The notes under the pieces were generated by a model. It had not been told where the DNA came from, made no database searches, and saw only the letters and a program-made list of their open reading frames with translations. From Escherichia coli (lineage in GTDB: Bacteria; Pseudomonadota; Gammaproteobacteria; Enterobacterales; Enterobacteriaceae), in NCBI RefSeq assembly GCF_041248615.1, contig NZ_CP158426.1: a DNA stretch of 64,000 nucleotides; one strand, written 5' to 3'. Below, piece by piece: positions 2,580 through 24,812 of this stretch (its first letter is position 1; every line of letters starts with the position of its first letter). The position numbers and the translations under genes are program-made.

Positions 2580-3764
2580 TTAATTCAACCGTTCAATCAC
2601 CATCGCAATTCCCTGGCCGCCACCAATGCACAGTGTTGCCAGCCCCAGCGTTTTATCGCGTGCCTGCATGGCATGTAATAGTGTGACCAGAATACGAGCA
2701 CCACTGGCACCGATAGGATGCCCGAGCGCGATGGCCCCGCCGTTGACATTCACTTTCTCAGAATCAAAGCCCAGGGTTTTCCCAACGGCAAGGAACTGTG
2801 CAGCAAATGCTTCATTACCCTCAATGAGATCAATATCCGCCAGTTGCAGCCCCGCCAGTTGTAACGCTTTTTGCGTGGCAGGTACTGGCCCCATACCCAT
2901 CAATGCGGGGGGCACGCCACCGCTGGCATAACTTTTAATGCGAGCCAGGGGGGTAAGGCCTGCTGCCAGCGCCGCAGATTCTTCCATAATCACCAGAGCG
3001 GCAGCACCGTCGTTAATACCAGACGCGTTCCCGGCGGTGACTGTTCCTGCTTTATCGAAGGCCGGGCGCAATGCGCCTAACGCTTCAGTCGTAGAATCCG
3101 CTTTCGGGAATTCGTCTTGACTGAAGACGAAGGTTTTCTTCCGAGTGACAACATTTACCGGGACGATTTCGGCTGTAAAAGCACCGGACTCAATTGCGGC
3201 TGCCGCTTTACGCTGTGAATGTAGCGCCAGTTCATCCTGCATTTCTCGGGTAATTCCGTACTCTTTGGCCACGTTCTCGGCGGTAATCCCCATATGATAA
3301 CCATGGGTGGCGCACATCAGACCATCGCGCAGGATTACGTCATAAACCTGTCCGTCTCCAAGACGATAACCAGAGCGTGCTTTTGCATCGAGTAAGTAGG
3401 GCGCTAAACTCATATTTTCCATACCCCCCGCCACAATGCTTTGCGCCTGACCTGCCTGAATTGCCTGGGCGGCAAGCGCCACACTTTTAAGACCCGAACC
3501 ACACACTTTATTGACCGTGAATCCGCACACCGTTTCTGCCAGCCCGCTTTTTAACAGTGCCTGACGTGCCGGATTTTGCCCCAACCCGGCTTGCAACACG
3601 TTACCCATAATCACTTCATCAATGTGTAGTGAATCGATTTTTGCACGTTCAATGGCGGCTTTAATTACTGTCGCCCCCAGGTCGATGGCGTTGGTGGAAG
3701 CGAGTGAACCGTTAAAACTACCGATAGCAGTACGTACCGCACTGACGATGACACAATTTTTCAT
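2580..3764 (-). CDS. atoB: Acetyl-CoA acetyltransferase (thiolase II)
   Basis: 394-aa ORF, N-terminus [17 protein letters not shown]; thiolase active-site motifs; last gene of atoDAEB. Confidence 0.97.
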
Positions 3765-3794: not shown

Positions 3795-5117
3795 TCAGAA
3801 CAGCGTTAAACCAATGACGAAAATGACGCCGGAGAAGAGCAGGGCAGTGATGCAATAGCCCATGATGTCGCGGACACCGAGTCCGGCGATTGCCAGTGCT
3901 GGCAGCGCCCAGAATGGTTGTGCCATGTTCATCCATTGCTCGCCGTAGGCGATCGCCATTACCGATTTACCGAGATCAGCGCCCAGCGCCTGGGCTGCGG
4001 GTATCACGAAAGGTCCCTGAATAACCCAGTGACCGCCGCCAGACGGAACGGCGAAGTTAATCAGTGCAGAACTAAAAAAGGTCATTACCGGGAAGGTGTT
4101 TTTGTTCGCAACATTGATGAAGAATTCGGTAATGAGTCCGCCCAGACCGGAATGCTCCATCATCAGTTGGATCCCAGCGTAGAAGGGGAATTGCACCAGA
4201 ATACCGGCAGTACTGCGTGCTGCCGCGCTGATAGCACGCATATAAGCCATTGGCGTTTTATGTAGCAGCAGACCCGCAATCATAAACATCAGGTTGACGG
4301 TATTGATGGTGATGTTGAAGCCATGTTCGTTGAAGTACATCGCAAGGTAAGCGATACCGAGTGCGCCGATGATCAACGTCAGAATGCGGCTTTCTTCCAG
4401 TCGCTCGGATGGTGGGGCATCTTTCGGTAGCTGCTTTTGGAAATCAGCCTCTTCCATGAGTAGTTTCGGATCGATACTCACCACGTCAGACGGTTTTGGC
4501 ATCATCATGCGGGTGATAAATGGCATCACCACAATCAACGCCACAGTGATGAAAATGTTAAAACCACTGAACAGAGTATCGCCCACCGGGATCAGCCCGG
4601 CGATATGCTCAACCGGGTTGCCCGGTGTTGCAGCCAACAGAGGCATTGAGCCAGAGAAACCGCCACCCCAGGTGAGAAAACCAATGTAGGCGCAGGCAAT
4701 GAGCAACGGATAATCAGAACCGGGTACTCGGCGGGCGACTTCACGGGCAAACATTGCGCCGACAACCAAACCAAATCCCCAGTTGATGACACAAGCGACT
4801 GAACCGAAGAAAGTAACCAGCATGACGCCCTGTACGGGCGTCTTTGCGGCGGAGGCGGCAGTACGCAGCAAACTTTTTACCGGAGCAGAGCTGGCAAGGG
4901 CATGACCGGTAACGATGATAAGCGCCATCTGCATACCAAACGCCAGCAAGTTCCAGAAACCGTCACCCCACATTTTCACCATGCTGATCGGCGTTTGTGG
5001 TGTTAACCAAAGCGCGATCACGAAAGTTAGCAATGTCAGCAACATGGCAAAGATCAGTGGATCGGGAAGCCACCGGCTGACAAAACGCGTCATAAAACGC
5101 GATATGCGACCAATCAT
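3795..5117 (-). CDS. atoE: Short-chain fatty acid transporter
   Basis: 440-aa polytopic membrane protein between atoA and atoB. Confidence 0.95.
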   Translation of the reverse strand: MIGRISRFMTRFVSRWLPDPLIFAMLLTLLTFVIALWLTPQTPISMVKMWGDGFWNLLAFGMQMALIIVTGHALASSAPVKSLLRTAASAAKTPVQGVMLVTFFGSVACVINWGFGLVVGAMFAREVARRVPGSDYPLLIACAYIGFLTWGGGFSGSMPLLAATPGNPVEHIAGLIPVGDTLFSGFNIFITVALIVVMPFITRMMMPKPSDVVSIDPKLLMEEADFQKQLPKDAPPSERLEESRILTLIIGALGIAYLAMYFNEHGFNITINTVNLMFMIAGLLLHKTPMAYMRAISAAARSTAGILVQFPFYAGIQLMMEHSGLGGLITEFFINVANKNTFPVMTFFSSALINFAVPSGGGHWVIQGPFVIPAAQALGADLGKSVMAIAYGEQWMNMAQPFWALPALAIAGLGVRDIMGYCITALLFSGVIFVIGLTLF

Positions 5118-5764
5118 AAATCACCCCGTTGCGTATTCAGATCGGCGGCAACTTCAAACCGAGCTTCTGTTTTGGCACACACGGTGGCTAAATCACACCC
5201 GTCGGCAATTTCGGTGAGCCACATTTTGCCGTCAATAAAACGAAAGACAGCCAGTTCAGTAACCAGCATATGCACCGCATGTTGCGCAGTGAGTGGCATG
5301 GTGCAGCGGCGCAAAATTTTTGCTGAACCATCTTTGGCACAATGTTCCATGGCGATGATCACTTTGCGCGACCCGGTCACCAGATCCATCGCGCCACCCA
5401 TACCGGGCACCATTTTCCCAGGCACTACCCAGTTCGCGAGGTTTGCTTCTTCGTCTACTTGCAAACCGCCGAGCACGCAGGCATCAATATGACCGCCGCG
5501 GATTAGCGCAAATGACATGGCGCTATCAAACATGGCTGCACCGGGTAAAACACCGCACGGTTGTCCGCCAGCGTTCACCAGATCTGGATGCGCTGTCGTG
5601 ACCGGGCCTAAACCGAGGAAGCCGTTTTCCGATTGCAGAGTGATATGAATACCCTCCGGTAAATAATTGGCGACCATTGTGGGTAAACCGATCCCTAAGT
5701 TAACGATGTCACCATCACGAAGCTCTTGCGCCACACGGCGCGCAATACGTTGTTTCGCATCCAT
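5114..5764 (-). CDS. atoA: Acetate CoA-transferase beta subunit
   Basis: 216-aa ORF; 4-bp overlap with the atoE start. Confidence 0.95.
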   Translation of the reverse strand: MDAKQRIARRVAQELRDGDIVNLGIGLPTMVANYLPEGIHITLQSENGFLGLGPVTTAHPDLVNAGGQPCGVLPGAAMFDSAMSFALIRGGHIDACVLGGLQVDEEANLANWVVPGKMVPGMGGAMDLVTGSRKVIIAMEHCAKDGSAKILRRCTMPLTAQHAVHMLVTELAVFRFIDGKMWLTEIADGCDLATVCAKTEARFEVAADLNTQRGDL

Positions 5765-6426
5765 TATTTGCTCTCCTGTGAAACGATGATGTGGTCGATA
5801 ACGGCACCAGGGGTGACAATATGGTCAGGTTGCAGCTCGCCGGTTTCGACCAGTTCATCTGGCTCTACCAGCGTGATATCAGCCGCAAGGGCTATCAGGG
5901 GGTTAAAGTTGCGGGCGCTAAGTTGATAGGTCAGGTTGCCAAGTGTGTCGCAACGATGAGCGCGAATTAGCGCCAGGTCGGCGCGCAGTGGGCGTTCGAG
6001 CAGCCAGGTTTTACCGTCGAGTGTCAGTGTCTGTTTGCCTTCCTCTACGACGGTGCCGACACCCGTTGGGGTGAGAAAACCACCAAGTCCAGCTCCGCCA
6101 CAGCGAATTTGCTCGATTAGCGTACCTTGCGGCACCAGAACGACGTCCATCTCACCAGATATCATGCGCCGACCTGTTTCCGGGTTGGTGCCGATATGTG
6201 AAGCAATCACTTTGCGGACTCGACCATTGACGATGAGCGGACCGATGCCGGTATCAACAAACGCGGTATCATTGGCTATCAATGTCAGGTCGCGAACACC
6301 TGATTCCAGTAATGCTTCAACCAGGCGGGATGGAGTGCCAATCCCCATAAATCCGCCCACCATGATGGTCATGCCGTCACGAAAGAAGCCGGTGGCATCT
6401 TGTAATGTCATCAATTTTGTTTTCAT
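5764..6426 (-). CDS. atoD: Acetate CoA-transferase alpha subunit
   Basis: 220-aa ORF, N-terminus [15 protein letters not shown]; first gene of atoDAEB. Confidence 0.95.
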
Positions 6427-6471
6427 TTTTTATCCCTCTTGCATACACCGTTGTGGGTACAGTCAGGGAAT

Positions 6472-6487
6472 AGCAAGGGGAGTGCCA
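6472..6487 (-). promoter_or_regulatory. Sigma-54 (-24/-12) promoter of atoDAEB
   Basis: Minus strand reads TGGCAC-N5-TTGCT (GG and GC correctly spaced), about 45 bp upstream of the atoD start codon. Confidence 0.8.
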
Positions 6488-6569
6488 GAATGAGATTATT
6501 GGGTTTTGTTATTTAACTAATTGAATATGAAGGGATAAATTGGATGAGGATTTATAAGGAGAATGAGCG

Positions 6570-6610
6570 GCTATGCAGAAAATTGCGCACTGTGCAAATT
6601 TCTGCATAGC
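6570..6610. promoter_or_regulatory. AtoC enhancer (upstream activating sequence): 40-bp imperfect palindrome
   Basis: gctatgcagaaaattgcgcac / ctgtgcaaatttctgcatagc are near-perfect inverted 20-mers, about 100 bp upstream of the sigma-54 promoter. Confidence 0.75.
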
Positions 6611-6621
6611 AAGTTTTGGCG

Positions 6622-8007
6622 TTATACATCCGCCGGATCGATACCGTATTCCTGGAGTTTATACATCAATGCACGGCGACTGATGCCCAGCATTAAAGCA
6701 GTGCGGGTTCGGTTTCCTTCTTGTTGTTCCAGCACTTCCATAATGATGCGTTTTTCGACGCGTTTAATTTCCTCTTTTAAATTACGCTCTCCGACAGGGG
6801 ATGTTTTTACCTCGCCAGCATTACAGACTGGCTGACGAATCTGCGGCGGAAGATCCTCAGAAAAAATGATCGGGCCTGAGTTCATCACGACGGCGCGTTC
6901 AATAACGTTGGAAAGCTCTCGAATATTTCCCGGCCATGACCAGGCGGTAAGCAGTGACATTGCCATCGGATCGATGTCGATAATATCGCGCTGATTCTCA
7001 CTACTGAATTTTTGCAAAAAGTGATTAGCTAACAGGGAAATATCTTCCCGGCGATCGCGCAGAGGCGGCAGTATTAAATGAATAACGTTAAGGCGATAAA
7101 AGAGATCTTCACGGAAGGTGCCTTCTTTTACCATTGCCTGCAAGTCACGGTTGGTGGCAGCAATGATGCGGATATCAACTTTTATGGTCTGATGGCCGCC
7201 AATCCGTTCAAATTCCCGTTCCTGCAGAATGCGTAGTAATTTGGCTTGCAGTACGAGCGGCATTTCGCCAATTTCGTCGAGGAGCAGAGTACCTTCGTTG
7301 GCACGTTCAAATAATCCCTGACGCAAGGTTTGTGCACCAGTAAATGCACCTTTTTCATGACCAAACAGTTCACTTTCGAGCAACGATTCCGGCAGCGCCG
7401 CGCAGTTGACTTTAATGAACGGCCCCTTTGCCCGCCGCGAATTGTAGTGAATCGCTCTGGCAATCAACTCTTTCCCGGTGCCGCTTTCACCGCTAATCAA
7501 GACGCTGGCCTGAGAAAGGGCAATTTTGGCGGTGTCTTTGCAGATGTCCATCATCGCCGGGCTGTTGGTGAGAATGTGCCCCCATTGCCAGCTAGTGCTC
7601 AGTGCCTGGTGCAGATGGCGGATCTCTTTTTTCATTGACTGGAGTTGTAAAGCGCGCTGAACGATTAAATTCAACTCATCGAGATCAAACGGTTTGATAA
7701 CATAGTCGAAGGCCCCGCAGCGTAGCGCTTCGACGGCGGTTTCCACTTCAGCATAGGCCGTCATCAGAATAACGGGGGTCCGTGTCTCATGGCTGCGCAT
7801 CTCCTTGAGTGCCTTGATGCCGTCCATCTCTGGCATGCGGATATCCATCAACACCACGTCAGGGTGAATATCAGCAAACAGGTGTAATGCTGTGCGTCCG
7901 TTGTTCGCACAATGTGTTTCGAAACCTTGTAGTGCAAAAGCGGTGCTCAGCATACGGCGAACATTATCTTCATCATCCACAATAAGGATGCGATTAATAG
8001 CAGTCAT
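6622..8007 (-). CDS. atoC: Sigma-54-dependent response regulator AtoC (NtrC family)
   Basis: 461-aa ORF with receiver domain, AAA+ GESGTGKE motif and C-terminal HTH. Confidence 0.97.
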   Translation of the reverse strand: MTAINRILIVDDEDNVRRMLSTAFALQGFETHCANNGRTALHLFADIHPDVVLMDIRMPEMDGIKALKEMRSHETRTPVILMTAYAEVETAVEALRCGAFDYVIKPFDLDELNLIVQRALQLQSMKKEIRHLHQALSTSWQWGHILTNSPAMMDICKDTAKIALSQASVLISGESGTGKELIARAIHYNSRRAKGPFIKVNCAALPESLLESELFGHEKGAFTGAQTLRQGLFERANEGTLLLDEIGEMPLVLQAKLLRILQEREFERIGGHQTIKVDIRIIAATNRDLQAMVKEGTFREDLFYRLNVIHLILPPLRDRREDISLLANHFLQKFSSENQRDIIDIDPMAMSLLTAWSWPGNIRELSNVIERAVVMNSGPIIFSEDLPPQIRQPVCNAGEVKTSPVGERNLKEEIKRVEKRIIMEVLEQQEGNRTRTALMLGISRRALMYKLQEYGIDPADV

Positions 8008-9830
8008 ACAGTCTGATTTCCCTGCGGGTTGATCGGTAAAATAAGCGTGAAGGTTGCGCCGTAGCCCGGCAAACTGGCGACGCGAATATCACCCTGATGG
8101 GCATTAATGATGCGTTGACTTAACGCCAGACCAAGCCCGGTTCCTGAGGCTTTGGTGGTGAAAAAGGGATCGAAGATCTTTTTTTGCAGCGAGAGATCAA
8201 TGCCACAGCCGTTGTCCTCTATCGAAATGGCCTGTTGTGAGTCGCTGTATTGCCAGGTTTGAATGCGAATTTTCCCTCGTGCGCTGATAGCCTGGACGGC
8301 ATTGATCAGGATATTCAGTAGTACCTGTTTGAGCAGTTCACGATCGGCGTTAATCGGGTTTAATTCATTATCCAGTTCGCTTATGAAGTCGACCCGCGCT
8401 TGTACGCCGGCGGTTTGTACCAGTACCAGAGTTTCTTCAACCAATGCATTGAGACTGACTTGTTGCCATTGACTGTGGCGTGGACGTGAAAATTCGAGCA
8501 ATTGCTGAATAACTTTGTTAATTGAATCGATTTCTTTGAGTACTACGGACAGATATTCCTGATGTATTAGGTCGCTGGTTTGTTGGCGCAAGATCTGTAC
8601 ATAACCACGAATAGCCGTTAGCGGATTACGTACTTCATGCGCGACGCCAGCCATCAGCTCACCCAGTGTGGCGAGGCGTTCTGCTTGCGCCATGCGGCGC
8701 TGGGTTTCTTTGCGGGCAGTTAAATCAGAGAAAATCACCAAAGCACCTATCATTTCACCATGCGTGTTATGAATACGACTGGTAGTGACACTGAGTTCAA
8801 TGGTGCGGTCACGGCCTGGAAAACTGATCTCCAGCGCTACATGTTCGGTGCCATGTTCCAGCGTATCCAGTACTGGACTGTAGAACTGAGTATTGTCGAA
8901 CAACATGGAGTAAGGCTGCCCTACCAGTTCATGACGTTGATAGCCAGTGATGACTTCTGCTGCCGGGTTCATGGTGGTTACATCACCCTGGCGGTCAATG
9001 GCAATGACGCCATCGGCAGCGTTTTCAATAATCAGATCGTTAAGTGTCCGCGTTTCACGCAGTGCCTGGGCGAGGTTGTTAACACTCTGACTGATTTGCC
9101 CCATTTCACCGGGCAATTGTGGTAATCGAGTGGGAATATTTTGCGCCAGAGTCGAGAGGCCATCGGTGATGATATCAATATTGGCGCTCAGGCGACGGGA
9201 GAAAAGGACAATCAACAGCAGGCTTATCAGCAAACCGGCGGTGAGCACAATGATAATCCTCACATCCATTTTCCAGGCCTGGCGGCGAATATCTTCGGTT
9301 AATTCATTGGCCCAGATATAGCCGAGGATTTCACCATTACGCTCAATGGGGATCATTGAATTCAAAATATCGCCGCGCACCTGCCTGCCTGAATAAACCA
9401 AAGGGGTATTTGTACGCATGACTTCGCGACCAGGGTGATCTGCGGCAATGGTAACGCCGACATTATTCTGATATAGCGCTGAAGGCGCGTAGGTGATTAT
9501 CGCATCCAGTGTTTTGTTGTAATAACCAGCGCCGATGCCAGGGAAGGCGTGAGTGATATTTTCGGTAATGGGGGCAAGTTCTGCATTTAATGCACGGATA
9601 CGCTCCTCACGTGGTAAGTCGATGTAGAGATCATAGCGATCGCCTAGTGCCTGATTAAGCAGGTTGACCACGGCAGAAAGTTTTTTCTCTTTTTCAGATA
9701 AGACTGCTGAACGTCCTTCTGTTTCTACGATATAACCAATAGTAAGCGTTGGGACAATGACCATCAGGATTGCCATCAGGATCATTTGATTGCGTAAGCG
9801 GCGTGGATAAATCCACTTCATATAATGCAT
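8004..9830 (-). CDS. atoS: Sensor histidine kinase AtoS
   Basis: ORF overlaps the atoC start by 4 bp; start set at MHYMKWIYPRRL (608 aa) rather than the first in-frame Met. Confidence 0.93.
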   Translation of the reverse strand: MHYMKWIYPRRLRNQMILMAILMVIVPTLTIGYIVETEGRSAVLSEKEKKLSAVVNLLNQALGDRYDLYIDLPREERIRALNAELAPITENITHAFPGIGAGYYNKTLDAIITYAPSALYQNNVGVTIAADHPGREVMRTNTPLVYSGRQVRGDILNSMIPIERNGEILGYIWANELTEDIRRQAWKMDVRIIIVLTAGLLISLLLIVLFSRRLSANIDIITDGLSTLAQNIPTRLPQLPGEMGQISQSVNNLAQALRETRTLNDLIIENAADGVIAIDRQGDVTTMNPAAEVITGYQRHELVGQPYSMLFDNTQFYSPVLDTLEHGTEHVALEISFPGRDRTIELSVTTSRIHNTHGEMIGALVIFSDLTARKETQRRMAQAERLATLGELMAGVAHEVRNPLTAIRGYVQILRQQTSDLIHQEYLSVVLKEIDSINKVIQQLLEFSRPRHSQWQQVSLNALVEETLVLVQTAGVQARVDFISELDNELNPINADRELLKQVLLNILINAVQAISARGKIRIQTWQYSDSQQAISIEDNGCGIDLSLQKKIFDPFFTTKASGTGLGLALSQRIINAHQGDIRVASLPGYGATFTLILPINPQGNQTV

Positions 9831-9996: not shown

Positions 9997-12846
9997 TTGA
10001 AATACCTTGCTTCTTTTCGTACAACCCTGAAAGCCTCGCGCTACATGTTCAGAGCATTGGCGTTAGTGCTCTGGCTGTTGATTGCTTTTTCATCCGTTTT
10101 TTACATCGTTAATGCGTTACATCAGCGAGAATCGGAAATTCGTCAGGAATTTAATCTGAGTTCCGATCAGGCTCAGCGCTTTATTCAACGTACCTCTGAT
10201 GTGATGAAAGAGCTGAAGTACATCGCTGAAAATCGCTTATCGGCAGAAAACGGTGTGCTTTCCCCGCGTGGACGAGAAACGCAGGCGGATGTGCCTGCGT
10301 TTGAACCGCTGTTTGCCGACTCCGATTGTTCCGCAATGAGTAACACCTGGCGAGGCTCTCTGGAGTCATTGGCGTGGTTTATGCGCTACTGGCGCGATAA
10401 TTTCTCTGCGGCTTACGATCTCAACCGGGTATTTTTAATCGGCAGCGATAACCTCTGCATGGCCAATTTCGGTCTGCGTGATATGCCAGTGGAACGCGAT
10501 ACCGCGTTGAAAGCGTTGCATGAACGCATTAATAAATATCGAAATGCACCACAAGATGATAGTGGCAGTAACCTCTACTGGATCAGCGAAGGTCCGCGCC
10601 CTGGCGTCGGGTATTTTTACGCGTTGACGCCAGTTTATCTGGCGAACCGGTTGCAGGCGCTTTTGGGTGTCGAGCAGACTATCCGGATGGAGAATTTTTT
10701 CTTACCTGGTACGTTGCCGATGGGGGTTACCATTCTTGATGAAAATGGTCATACCCTGATTTCGCTTACCGGACCAGAAAGTAAAATTAAGGGCGATCCT
10801 CGCTGGATGCAGGAACGCTCCTGGTTTGGCTATACGGAAGGGTTCCGGGAGCTGGTGCTGAAGAAAAATCTGCCACCCTCATCGCTAAGCATCGTGTATT
10901 CGGTGCCGGTTGATAAGGTGCTGGAACGCATTCGCATGTTGATCCTTAACGCAATTTTGCTGAATGTGCTTGCCGGAGCTGCATTGTTTACTCTCGCGCG
11001 GATGTACGAGCGACGTATTTTCATTCCGGCGGAAAGCGACGCCCTGCGACTGGAAGAACATGAGCAGTTTAATCGCAAGATTGTCGCCTCCGCGCCAGTG
11101 GGTATCTGCATTTTGCGTACCGCTGATGGCGTCAATATTTTAAGTAACGAACTGGCGCATACCTATCTCAATATGCTTACGCATGAGGATCGCCAACGGC
11201 TGACACAAATTATCTGTGGGCAGCAGGTCAATTTTGTTGATGTCCTGACCAGCAACAATACCAATCTGCAAATCAGCTTCGTCCATTCGCGCTATCGTAA
11301 TGAAAACGTGGCCATTTGTGTGCTGGTGGATGTTTCTTCGCGCGTGAAGATGGAAGAGTCGTTGCAGGAGATGGCACAAGCAGCGGAACAGGCGAGCCAG
11401 TCAAAATCGATGTTCCTTGCCACCGTCAGTCATGAGCTGCGAACGCCGCTGTATGGGATTATCGGTAACCTGGATCTGTTGCAAACCAAAGAGTTACCGA
11501 AAGGCGTCGATCGTCTGGTGACGGCAATGAACAACTCTTCCAGCCTGTTGTTGAAAATTATCAGCGATATTCTCGATTTCTCGAAAATTGAATCAGAACA
11601 GTTGAAGATCGAACCGCGTGAGTTTTCACCGCGTGAAGTGATGAACCACATCACCGCCAACTATTTACCGCTGGTGGTACGCAAGCAGTTAGGCTTGTAC
11701 TGCTTTATTGAACCGGATGTGCCAGTGGCCTTAAATGGCGACCCAATGCGTTTACAGCAGGTCATCTCCAACCTGTTGAGTAACGCCATAAAATTCACCG
11801 ATACCGGCTGTATAGTTTTGCATGTTCGCGCTGATGGCGATTATCTCTCTATCCGTGTTCGCGATACCGGCGTGGGGATTCCGGCGAAAGAAGTCGTGCG
11901 CTTGTTTGATCCCTTCTTCCAGGTCGGAACGGGCGTACAGCGTAACTTCCAGGGGACCGGTCTGGGTCTGGCGATTTGTGAAAAACTGATCAGCATGATG
12001 GACGGCGATATCTCGGTAGATTCAGAACCGGGAATGGGCAGCCAGTTTACCGTGCGTATTCCGTTGTACGGCGCTCAGTACCCGCAGAAAAAAGGCGTGG
12101 AAGGGTTGAGTGGTAAACGCTGCTGGCTGGCGGTCCGCAATGCGTCGCTCTGTCAGTTCCTGGAAACCAGTTTGCAGCGCAGCGGCATCGTCGTTACAAC
12201 ATACGAAGGGCAGGAATCGACTCCCGAAGATGTGTTAATCACTGACGAGGTAGTGAGTAAAAAATGGCAGGGCAGAGCGGTAGTGACCTTCTGTCGTCGC
12301 CATATTGGTATTCCGCTGGAGAAAGCGCCAGGGGAGTGGGTACACAGTGTGGCTGCCCCGCATGAGCTACCGGCATTGTTGGCGCGTATTTATTTGATCG
12401 AGATGGAGAGCGACAATCCTGCTAACGCTCTGCCGTTAACGGACAAAGCGGTCAGCGATAATGACGATATGATGATTCTGGTCGTGGATGATCATCCGAT
12501 TAACCGACGTCTGCTGGCAGATCAGTTGGGATCGTTGGGTTATCAATGTAAAACCGCGAATGATGGCGTCGATGCGCTTAATGTACTTAGCAAGAATCAT
12601 ATTGATATCGTGCTTAGCGACGTCAACATGCCAAATATGGATGGTTACCGCTTGACGCAACGCATTCGTCAGTTGGGACTGACGTTGCCGGTAATCGGAG
12701 TAACTGCTAATGCGTTGGCTGAAGAGAAGCAGCGGTGTCTGGAGTCCGGTATGGACAGCTGCCTGTCGAAGCCGGTAACGCTGGATGTGATAAAACAGAC
12801 GCTGACGGTATATGCCGAGAGGGTCAGGAAATCGCGGGAATCGTAG
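9997..12846 (+). CDS. rcsC: Hybrid sensor kinase RcsC
   Basis: 949-aa ORF with N-terminal membrane/periplasmic region, HisKA/HATPase and C-terminal receiver. Confidence 0.97.
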   Translation: MKYLASFRTTLKASRYMFRALALVLWLLIAFSSVFYIVNALHQRESEIRQEFNLSSDQAQRFIQRTSDVMKELKYIAENRLSAENGVLSPRGRETQADVPAFEPLFADSDCSAMSNTWRGSLESLAWFMRYWRDNFSAAYDLNRVFLIGSDNLCMANFGLRDMPVERDTALKALHERINKYRNAPQDDSGSNLYWISEGPRPGVGYFYALTPVYLANRLQALLGVEQTIRMENFFLPGTLPMGVTILDENGHTLISLTGPESKIKGDPRWMQERSWFGYTEGFRELVLKKNLPPSSLSIVYSVPVDKVLERIRMLILNAILLNVLAGAALFTLARMYERRIFIPAESDALRLEEHEQFNRKIVASAPVGICILRTADGVNILSNELAHTYLNMLTHEDRQRLTQIICGQQVNFVDVLTSNNTNLQISFVHSRYRNENVAICVLVDVSSRVKMEESLQEMAQAAEQASQSKSMFLATVSHELRTPLYGIIGNLDLLQTKELPKGVDRLVTAMNNSSSLLLKIISDILDFSKIESEQLKIEPREFSPREVMNHITANYLPLVVRKQLGLYCFIEPDVPVALNGDPMRLQQVISNLLSNAIKFTDTGCIVLHVRADGDYLSIRVRDTGVGIPAKEVVRLFDPFFQVGTGVQRNFQGTGLGLAICEKLISMMDGDISVDSEPGMGSQFTVRIPLYGAQYPQKKGVEGLSGKRCWLAVRNASLCQFLETSLQRSGIVVTTYEGQESTPEDVLITDEVVSKKWQGRAVVTFCRRHIGIPLEKAPGEWVHSVAAPHELPALLARIYLIEMESDNPANALPLTDKAVSDNDDMMILVVDDHPINRRLLADQLGSLGYQCKTANDGVDALNVLSKNHIDIVLSDVNMPNMDGYRLTQRIRQLGLTLPVIGVTANALAEEKQRCLESGMDSCLSKPVTLDVIKQTLTVYAERVRKSRES

Positions 12847-12847
12847 G

Positions 12848-12928
12848 ACGGATAAGGCGTTTACGCCGCATCTGGCATTCAGTGCAAATGCCAGATGCGG
12901 CGCTAACGCGTCTTATCTGGCCTACAGG
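12848..12928. repeat. REP (repetitive extragenic palindrome) pair between convergent rcsC and rcsB
   Basis: gccgcatctggca ... tgccagatgcggc inverted units with the typical REP consensus. Confidence 0.8.
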
Positions 12929-16582: not shown

Positions 16583-16675
16583 AAAAAAAACCGGATGCGA
16601 GGCATCCGGTTGAAATAGGGGTAAACAGACATTCAGAAATGAATGACGGTAATAAATAAAGTTAATGATGATAGC
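16583..16675 (-). ncRNA. micF: MicF antisense sRNA
   Basis: Reverse complement matches recalled micF (GCTATCATCATTAACTTTATTTATTACCGTCATTCATTTCTGAATGTCTGTTTACCCC...), ending in a terminator hairpin and U-run; divergent from ompC. Confidence 0.9.
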
Positions 16676-16820
16676 GGGAGTTATTCTAGTTGCGAGTGAA
16701 GGTTTTGTTTTGACATTCAGTGCTGTCAAATACTTAAGAATAAGTTATTGATTTTAACCTTGAATTATTATTGCTTGATGTTAGGTGCTTATTTCGCCAT
16801 TCCGCAATAATCTTAAAAAG

Positions 16821-24675: not shown

Positions 24676-24679
24676 TGAT

Positions 24680-24812
24680 GTGCCACATCCGGCATGGTAT
24701 GCCGGATGTGGCGTATGCAGATAAGACGCGTCAGCGTCGCATCAGGCAACCGGCTCGGGCGTTGGATGTCGGATGCGGCGTGACCGCCTTATCCGGCCTA
24801 CGGGGTGGAGCA
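24680..24812. repeat. REP/BIME cluster between convergent mqo and eco
   Basis: Several gccggatg / cggatgcggcg / ccttatccggcctac units in alternating orientation. Confidence 0.8.

Follow-up and report, generated by a model that had tools for sequence, protein, structure and literature searches.

The atoC-atoD spacer of an Escherichia coli chromosome as the known atoDAEB promoter region, with its AtoC enhancer and sigma-54 promoter

The stretch between atoC and atoD in the window analysed here, which is 64,000 nucleotides of Escherichia coli DNA (NZ_CP158426.1), is almost certainly the atoDAEB promoter region of the species (Pato), composed of an enhancer for the response regulator AtoC and a sigma-54 promoter. 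This control region is already known and well studied, as the switch for the genes that deal with acetoacetate and short-chain fatty acids. The original prediction had recognised it as the atoDAEB control region from the letters, a reading that is supported by the identity with K-12, by the domains of AtoC, and by the published occupancy of the region by AtoC and sigma-54.

The Ato proteins are encoded by six reading frames on the minus strand, between rcsC on one side and yfaP/yfaQ on the other, and the gene order (rcsC / atoS-atoC / atoDAEB / yfaP) is shared with the ato locus of K-12. The genes are the following:

8004-9830, minus strand: atoS, sensor histidine kinase (604 of 608 residues as in K-12)
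6622-8007, minus strand: atoC, sigma-54 enhancer-binding response regulator (460 of 461 residues as in K-12)
5764-6426, minus strand: atoD, alpha subunit of acetate CoA-transferase (Pfam CoA_trans), the first gene of atoDAEB (220 of 220 residues as in K-12)
5114-5764, minus strand: atoA, full length, annotated likewise in K-12 and in strain K_EC180
3795-5117, minus strand: atoE, full length, annotated likewise in K-12 and in strain K_EC180
2580-3764, minus strand: atoB, full length, annotated likewise in K-12 and in strain K_EC180

All six proteins are full length, with identities to K-12 of 98-100% (98-99.5% for AtoA, AtoE, and AtoB), and the two regulators differ from those of K-12 at 4 residues in AtoS and at 1 in AtoC. 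In Pfam, AtoS shows PAS, HisKA, and HATPase_c domains, together with a HAMP match that falls under the Pfam cut-off (20.2 vs 25 bits). AtoC is composed of Response_reg, Sigma54_activat (1.5e-75), AAA_lid_14, and HTH_8, a helix-turn-helix of the Fis type, and the GAFTGA loop that marks activators of the NtrC class is found at its residue 220. The claim that atoS and atoC are intact holds for their reading frames, both of which are uninterrupted and full length. Residue 421 of AtoS (codon 8568-8570, minus strand), which falls within the HisKA/DHp domain, is a leucine in the window and a proline in K-12 and in five Citrobacter species; since the exact AtoS sequence of the window is found on at least 1000 contigs, the form with L421 is a common natural allele. 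In strain K_EC180, the control region is 100% identical to that of the window, yet atoS is frameshifted.

The control elements lie between the stop codon of atoC (TAA, 6624-6622, minus strand) and the start codon of atoD (ATG, 6426..6424, minus strand). In the direction of transcription, they are:

6570-6610, minus strand: AtoC enhancer or upstream activating sequence, GCTATGCAGAAATTTGCACA-G-TGCGCAATTTTCTGCATAGC, a 41-bp palindrome and published AtoC site
6514-6526, minus strand: IHF-like site ATTCAATTAGTTA, with a single mismatch to WATCAANNNNTTR, between enhancer and promoter
6487-6472, minus strand: sigma-54 promoter atoDp, TGGCAC-N5-TTGCT, TGGCACTCCCCTTGCT, the single match in the window
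6461, minus strand: predicted transcription start, placed by sigma-54 promoter geometry 12 nt past the -12 C and 35 nt before the ATG
6427-6460, minus strand: 5' leader of atoD, with the Shine-Dalgarno sequence GAGGG at 6438-6434, strongly conserved as far as Citrobacter

The spacer between atoC and atoD is the same as in the atoDp/Pato region of K-12 MG1655 at 206 of 211 positions. The five single-base differences are spread over spacer and leader, and none of them falls inside the palindrome or the -24/-12 element, both of which are identical. One difference lies at position 6468 (minus strand), 4 nt past the GC of the -12 element, where the window has C and K-12 has G; because the C is shared by Citrobacter and a divergent Escherichia, the G of K-12 looks like the derived allele.

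The arms of the palindrome (6570-6589 and 6591-6610) are 20 nt each and are complementary at 18 of 20 positions (90%) around one central base, so the inverted repeat of 20 plus 20 bp that had been called near-perfect is confirmed, with near-perfect to be read as 18/20. The two 21-nt arm strings quoted with that claim are a plus-strand reading, and both of them include the central C at 6590. The palindrome begins 11 nt past the atoC stop and is the only one at 18/20 or better in the window, and in 100 sequences simulated with a first-order Markov model none reached 18/20, the best being 17. Four further 20+20 palindromes are found at 16/20 (12863-12903, 24677-24717, 41925-41965, and 58464-58506), which are probably hairpins of the REP or terminator type; that at 12863-12903 overlaps a match to naRNA4 just past rcsC.

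The distance of the palindrome to the promoter is 82 nt from edge to edge and 106 bp from its centre to the -24 GG, either of which agrees within rounding with the figure of about 100 bp first given. The proposal that this is the enhancer-to-promoter distance of the NtrC family is borne out as well, the centre-to-GG distance lying inside the range of about 80-150 bp upstream of the -24 element that applies to dyad-symmetric activating sequences. Written as hexamers, the palindrome reads TATGCA-N6-TGCACA-G-TGCGCA-N6-TGCATA, and from this pattern each 20-bp arm would consist of a pair of GCA/TGC sub-sites separated by one helical turn. With two such hexamers per arm, there may be room on the palindrome for two dimers of AtoC, as on an NtrC enhancer.

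For this sequence, AtoC binding is described in the literature as verified by experiment. According to PMC3118216, the site is a 40-bp palindrome ahead of the atoDAEB start, formed by a pair of inverted 20-bp sites, and its elements govern acetoacetate inducibility and AtoC binding. The same paper gives inducible binding of AtoC in vivo as confirmed by ChIP and atoDAEB expression as sigma-54 dependent, and cites Matta et al. 2007 (J Bacteriol 189:6324) for all of these statements.

The motif of the sigma-54 promoter is confirmed at 6487-6472 (minus strand), with 45 nt between it and the ATG of atoD, in agreement with the original prediction; the GG of its -24 element occupies 6486-6485 and the GC of its -12 element 6474-6473. 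The sequence CTGGCACTCCCCTTGCT upstream of atoD corresponds to the sigma-54 ChIP-seq site OS21 (PMC4591121). OS21 is marked with a C there, as are the classic sigma-54 promoters, which we take to mean that it had been confirmed previously (PMC4591121). Its motif lies 35 nt from atoD (PMC4591121), which puts the start of transcription at 6461, in agreement with the promoter geometry. In vitro, binding of the RpoN holoenzyme in the atoC/atoD spacer has been detected by genomic SELEX (gSELEX; PMC8743547).

Conservation beyond E. coli was examined by a scan for AtoC with one genome per species, which gave a divergent Escherichia (L003; AtoC 90% identical) and five Citrobacter species (L004-L008; 83-86%). 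In each of these loci, the same palindrome comes next after atoC, and then a -24/-12 element and atoD. In the alignment of Escherichia and Citrobacter, 31 of 41 columns (76%) are invariant in the palindrome and 11 of 16 (69%) in the -24/-12 element, as compared to 12 of 85 (14%) between them, and the GG and GC of the promoter are invariant across the seven orthologous loci. The distance from the palindrome centre to the GG varies between 106 and 109 bp across the orthologues. Both elements, and the distance between them, are thus conserved in spite of a diverged intervening spacer. The divergent Escherichia carries a symmetric pair of changes, in which a G of the left arm is replaced by A and the C at the mirror position of the right arm by T, so that the dyad is preserved.

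These data bear on whether the -24/-12 match and the palindrome could be a product of chance, or a relic, with atoDAEB being transcribed from an ordinary sigma-70 promoter. The promoter motif alone is not decisive here, since TGGCAC-N5-TTGCW, which occurs once in the 64 kb window, is expected 0.13 times from shuffled sequence, 13 of 100 window shuffles having given one match. The palindrome, on the other hand, surpassed all simulations, and a consensus scan for sigma-70-like promoters within 6300-6800 returned 0 sites, where 1.0 were expected. Both elements have been kept across genera together with their spacing, in a spacer that drifts, and sigma-54 occupies the site by ChIP-seq (PMC4591121) and gSELEX (PMC8743547). 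On the strength of the conservation and of the occupancy data, chance is excluded, and an ordinary sigma-70 promoter is scarcely credible.

Another possibility is that the palindrome acts mainly in RNA, as a hairpin at the 3' end of atoSC that would terminate transcription or stabilise the transcript and insulate atoDAEB from read-through, and not as an enhancer. The position of the palindrome, so close behind the atoC stop codon, would fit such a role, as would its RNA fold of -23.3 kcal/mol (z-score -3.86), and the symmetric change in the divergent Escherichia preserves the RNA stem as well as the DNA dyad. However, the stem is followed by no run of T/U, and a terminator scan of the minus strand gave nothing at this place; for lack of a U-tract, a terminator was ruled out as the main function of the palindrome. 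Moreover, binding of AtoC in vitro and in vivo has been published for the exact sequence (PMC3118216). The mismatches between the arms are U-U and A-C, not G-U, and therefore nothing favours pairing in RNA over the dyad in DNA. A hairpin as the main function is very unlikely; it is possible as a side effect of the palindrome, and is not needed to explain the conservation.

The palindrome could also be bound by a different regulator of the NtrC family or of the Fis type, through cross-talk, instead of by AtoC. NtrC-type enhancers have TGCAC half-sites, which the inner core of the palindrome, TGCACA-G-TGCGCA, resembles, and E. coli possesses about a dozen activators of this sort (PMC8743547). 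Against this, the palindrome adjoins atoC in every locus examined, two distant phyla included, and loss of atoC abolishes the activity of a Pato reporter (PMC7618054). This mutant phenotype contradicts recognition by another activator, a reading that is extremely unlikely.

With AtoC as the activator of the region, the response of the promoter is also documented. A fusion of Pato to GFP is induced by acetoacetate in three strains that have atoSC, namely K-12, NEB5alpha, and Nissle 1917, and the reporter is silent in atoS, atoC, and atoSC mutants (PMC7618054). The experiments that had been proposed along with the original prediction have, therefore, largely been done already, on identical sequence. 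The alleles of the window are expected to behave like those of K-12.

The mechanism can be outlined from published work on K-12 and on activators of the NtrC family, from which we infer the steps of oligomer assembly, looping, and use of IHF. Acetoacetate would be sensed by AtoS, leading to the phosphorylation of AtoC, which would then bind the 40-bp palindrome that starts 11 nt past its own stop codon and assemble into an active AAA+ oligomer. The sigma-54 RNA polymerase would be held at TGGCAC-N5-TTGCT in a closed complex. AtoC, bound about 106 bp upstream, could contact it there once the AT-rich spacer is bent, probably by IHF. ATP hydrolysis by the AAA+ ring would remodel the closed complex and open the promoter, so that transcription would proceed from near 6461, about 35 nt upstream of atoD, through atoDAEB.

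The IHF-like 13-mer in the spacer is partly conserved, 6 of its 13 columns being invariant, as compared to 14% over the whole spacer, and its consensus is a loose one. A literature search for a link between AtoC and IHF gave nothing specific. The abstract of the 2007 work by Matta and colleagues reportedly states that IHF is required. The AtoC site is also said to have been given there the coordinates -146 to -107, from which a transcription start at 6464 would follow, 3 nt from the 6461 predicted by geometry.

The atoD leader is conserved as well, with 21 of 34 and 11 of 14 columns invariant in the alignment of Escherichia and Citrobacter. Over 6427-6461 (GTACCCA...GTAT...AGGGA), conservation out to Citrobacter nearly reaches the level of coding sequence. 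In a passage of PMC7618054 that cites Beisel 2012, atoD is reported as a target of the small RNA Spot 42. In folding of the full-length duplex of Spot 42 with the atoD leader, 84% of shuffles were as good, and the longest Watson-Crick run between them, 7 nt (Spot 42 nt 4-10 with leader nt 1-7), was equalled by 33% of shuffles. No link between Spot 42 pairing and the leader conservation emerged from these tests, in which the pairing did no better than shuffled sequence. No Rfam family matches in or near 6400-6650. Elsewhere in the window, matches at the Rfam gathering threshold are the MicF sRNA (16583-16676, minus strand), naRNA4 (12846-12922, plus strand), a tRNA (41803-41876, minus strand), and the L25 ribosomal protein leader (45592-45617, minus strand), all of them expected in this region of the E. 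coli chromosome.

Within E. coli, the flanking genes are annotated as atoC and atoD in 3925 of 5426 complete genomes. A 49-mer containing the palindrome is identical to that of the window in 3539 of the 3923 genomes carrying it (90%). At the promoter, the corresponding 49-mer is the same as that of the window in 1793 genomes and differs slightly in 2129 (about 46% vs 54%), K-12-type strains belonging to the latter group. The atoC-atoD region has no match in 1501 of the 5426 complete genomes, which indicates that the ato locus is absent from more than a quarter of them, and one copy of the region in this set is borne on a plasmid. The atoD promoter of E. coli 23AR1101 (NZ_CM132250.1; L082, 3001-4280) is interrupted at its -12 element by an IS5-like ISKpn26 insertion, in a strain whose atoS carries a frameshift and whose atoC contains an internal stop codon. 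The insertion may represent a bypass of the lost activator driven by the IS element, or simple decay of the locus.

The arrangement of Pato is the one seen at other promoters of the NtrC class, such as glnAp2 (NtrC), pspA (PspF), zraP (ZraR), and prpB (PrpR), where a GG-N10-GC promoter is combined with a dyad enhancer about 100 bp upstream. Common to these promoters and Pato are also an activator with a receiver, a GAFTGA-containing AAA+ domain, and a Fis-type helix-turn-helix, as well as an AT-rich spacer that contains an IHF-like sequence. What distinguishes Pato is the signal, which is acetoacetate via AtoS, the recognition sequence, and the form of the enhancer as one continuous 40-bp palindrome that abuts the stop codon of the activator's own gene.

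AtoSC-like loci were also found at a greater distance, in metagenome-assembled genomes (MAGs) of a member of the Nitrospiraceae (L009, 3890-4007) and of a member of the Deltaproteobacteria (L010, 3873-4034), each with an AtoC that is 56% identical. In the former, atoS-atoC is followed by CoA-transferase genes and in the latter by a short-chain fatty acid (SCFA) transporter. As in E. coli, an enhancer core, AT tracts, and outer GCA/GCG hexamers come directly after the atoC stop, whereas the core, TGCRNA-GG-TGCGCA, has a central gap of 2 nt instead of the 1 nt of E. coli. The promoter is TGGCAT-N5-TTGCT in both, upstream of the CoA-transferase or transporter genes. The distances from enhancer to promoter are 85.5 bp in L009 and 129.5 bp in L010, each about two helical turns off the 106 bp of the E. 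coli window. Over 533 kb of sequence, the core pattern matches every ato locus at that position and only two other places; as the pattern was defined after seeing L009 and L010, this result is only suggestive.

That these two loci share the layout of atoSC, enhancer, and promoter with E. coli is suggested by their sequences and would be one modest extension of what is known. It is conceivable, although we put it somewhat below an even chance, that atoSC, enhancer, and sigma-54 promoter constitute an ancient and portable regulatory cassette in which an enhancer of four hexamers, GCA-N6-TGCRNA-N1-2-TGCGCA-N6-NGC, has been kept. If so, each 20-bp arm would be a complete dimer site, and the phasing of enhancer and promoter on the face of the helix would be under selection.

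As a characterised model sigma-54 promoter that is already in use as a part for acetoacetate biosensors, the region offers little in terms of discovery. It serves as a positive control, in which both elements and their spacing were located correctly from raw sequence. The footprint across genera, together with the two distant loci, gives a cleaner view of the constrained bases of the enhancer, which may be of help in the engineering of Pato and in studies of AtoC specificity.
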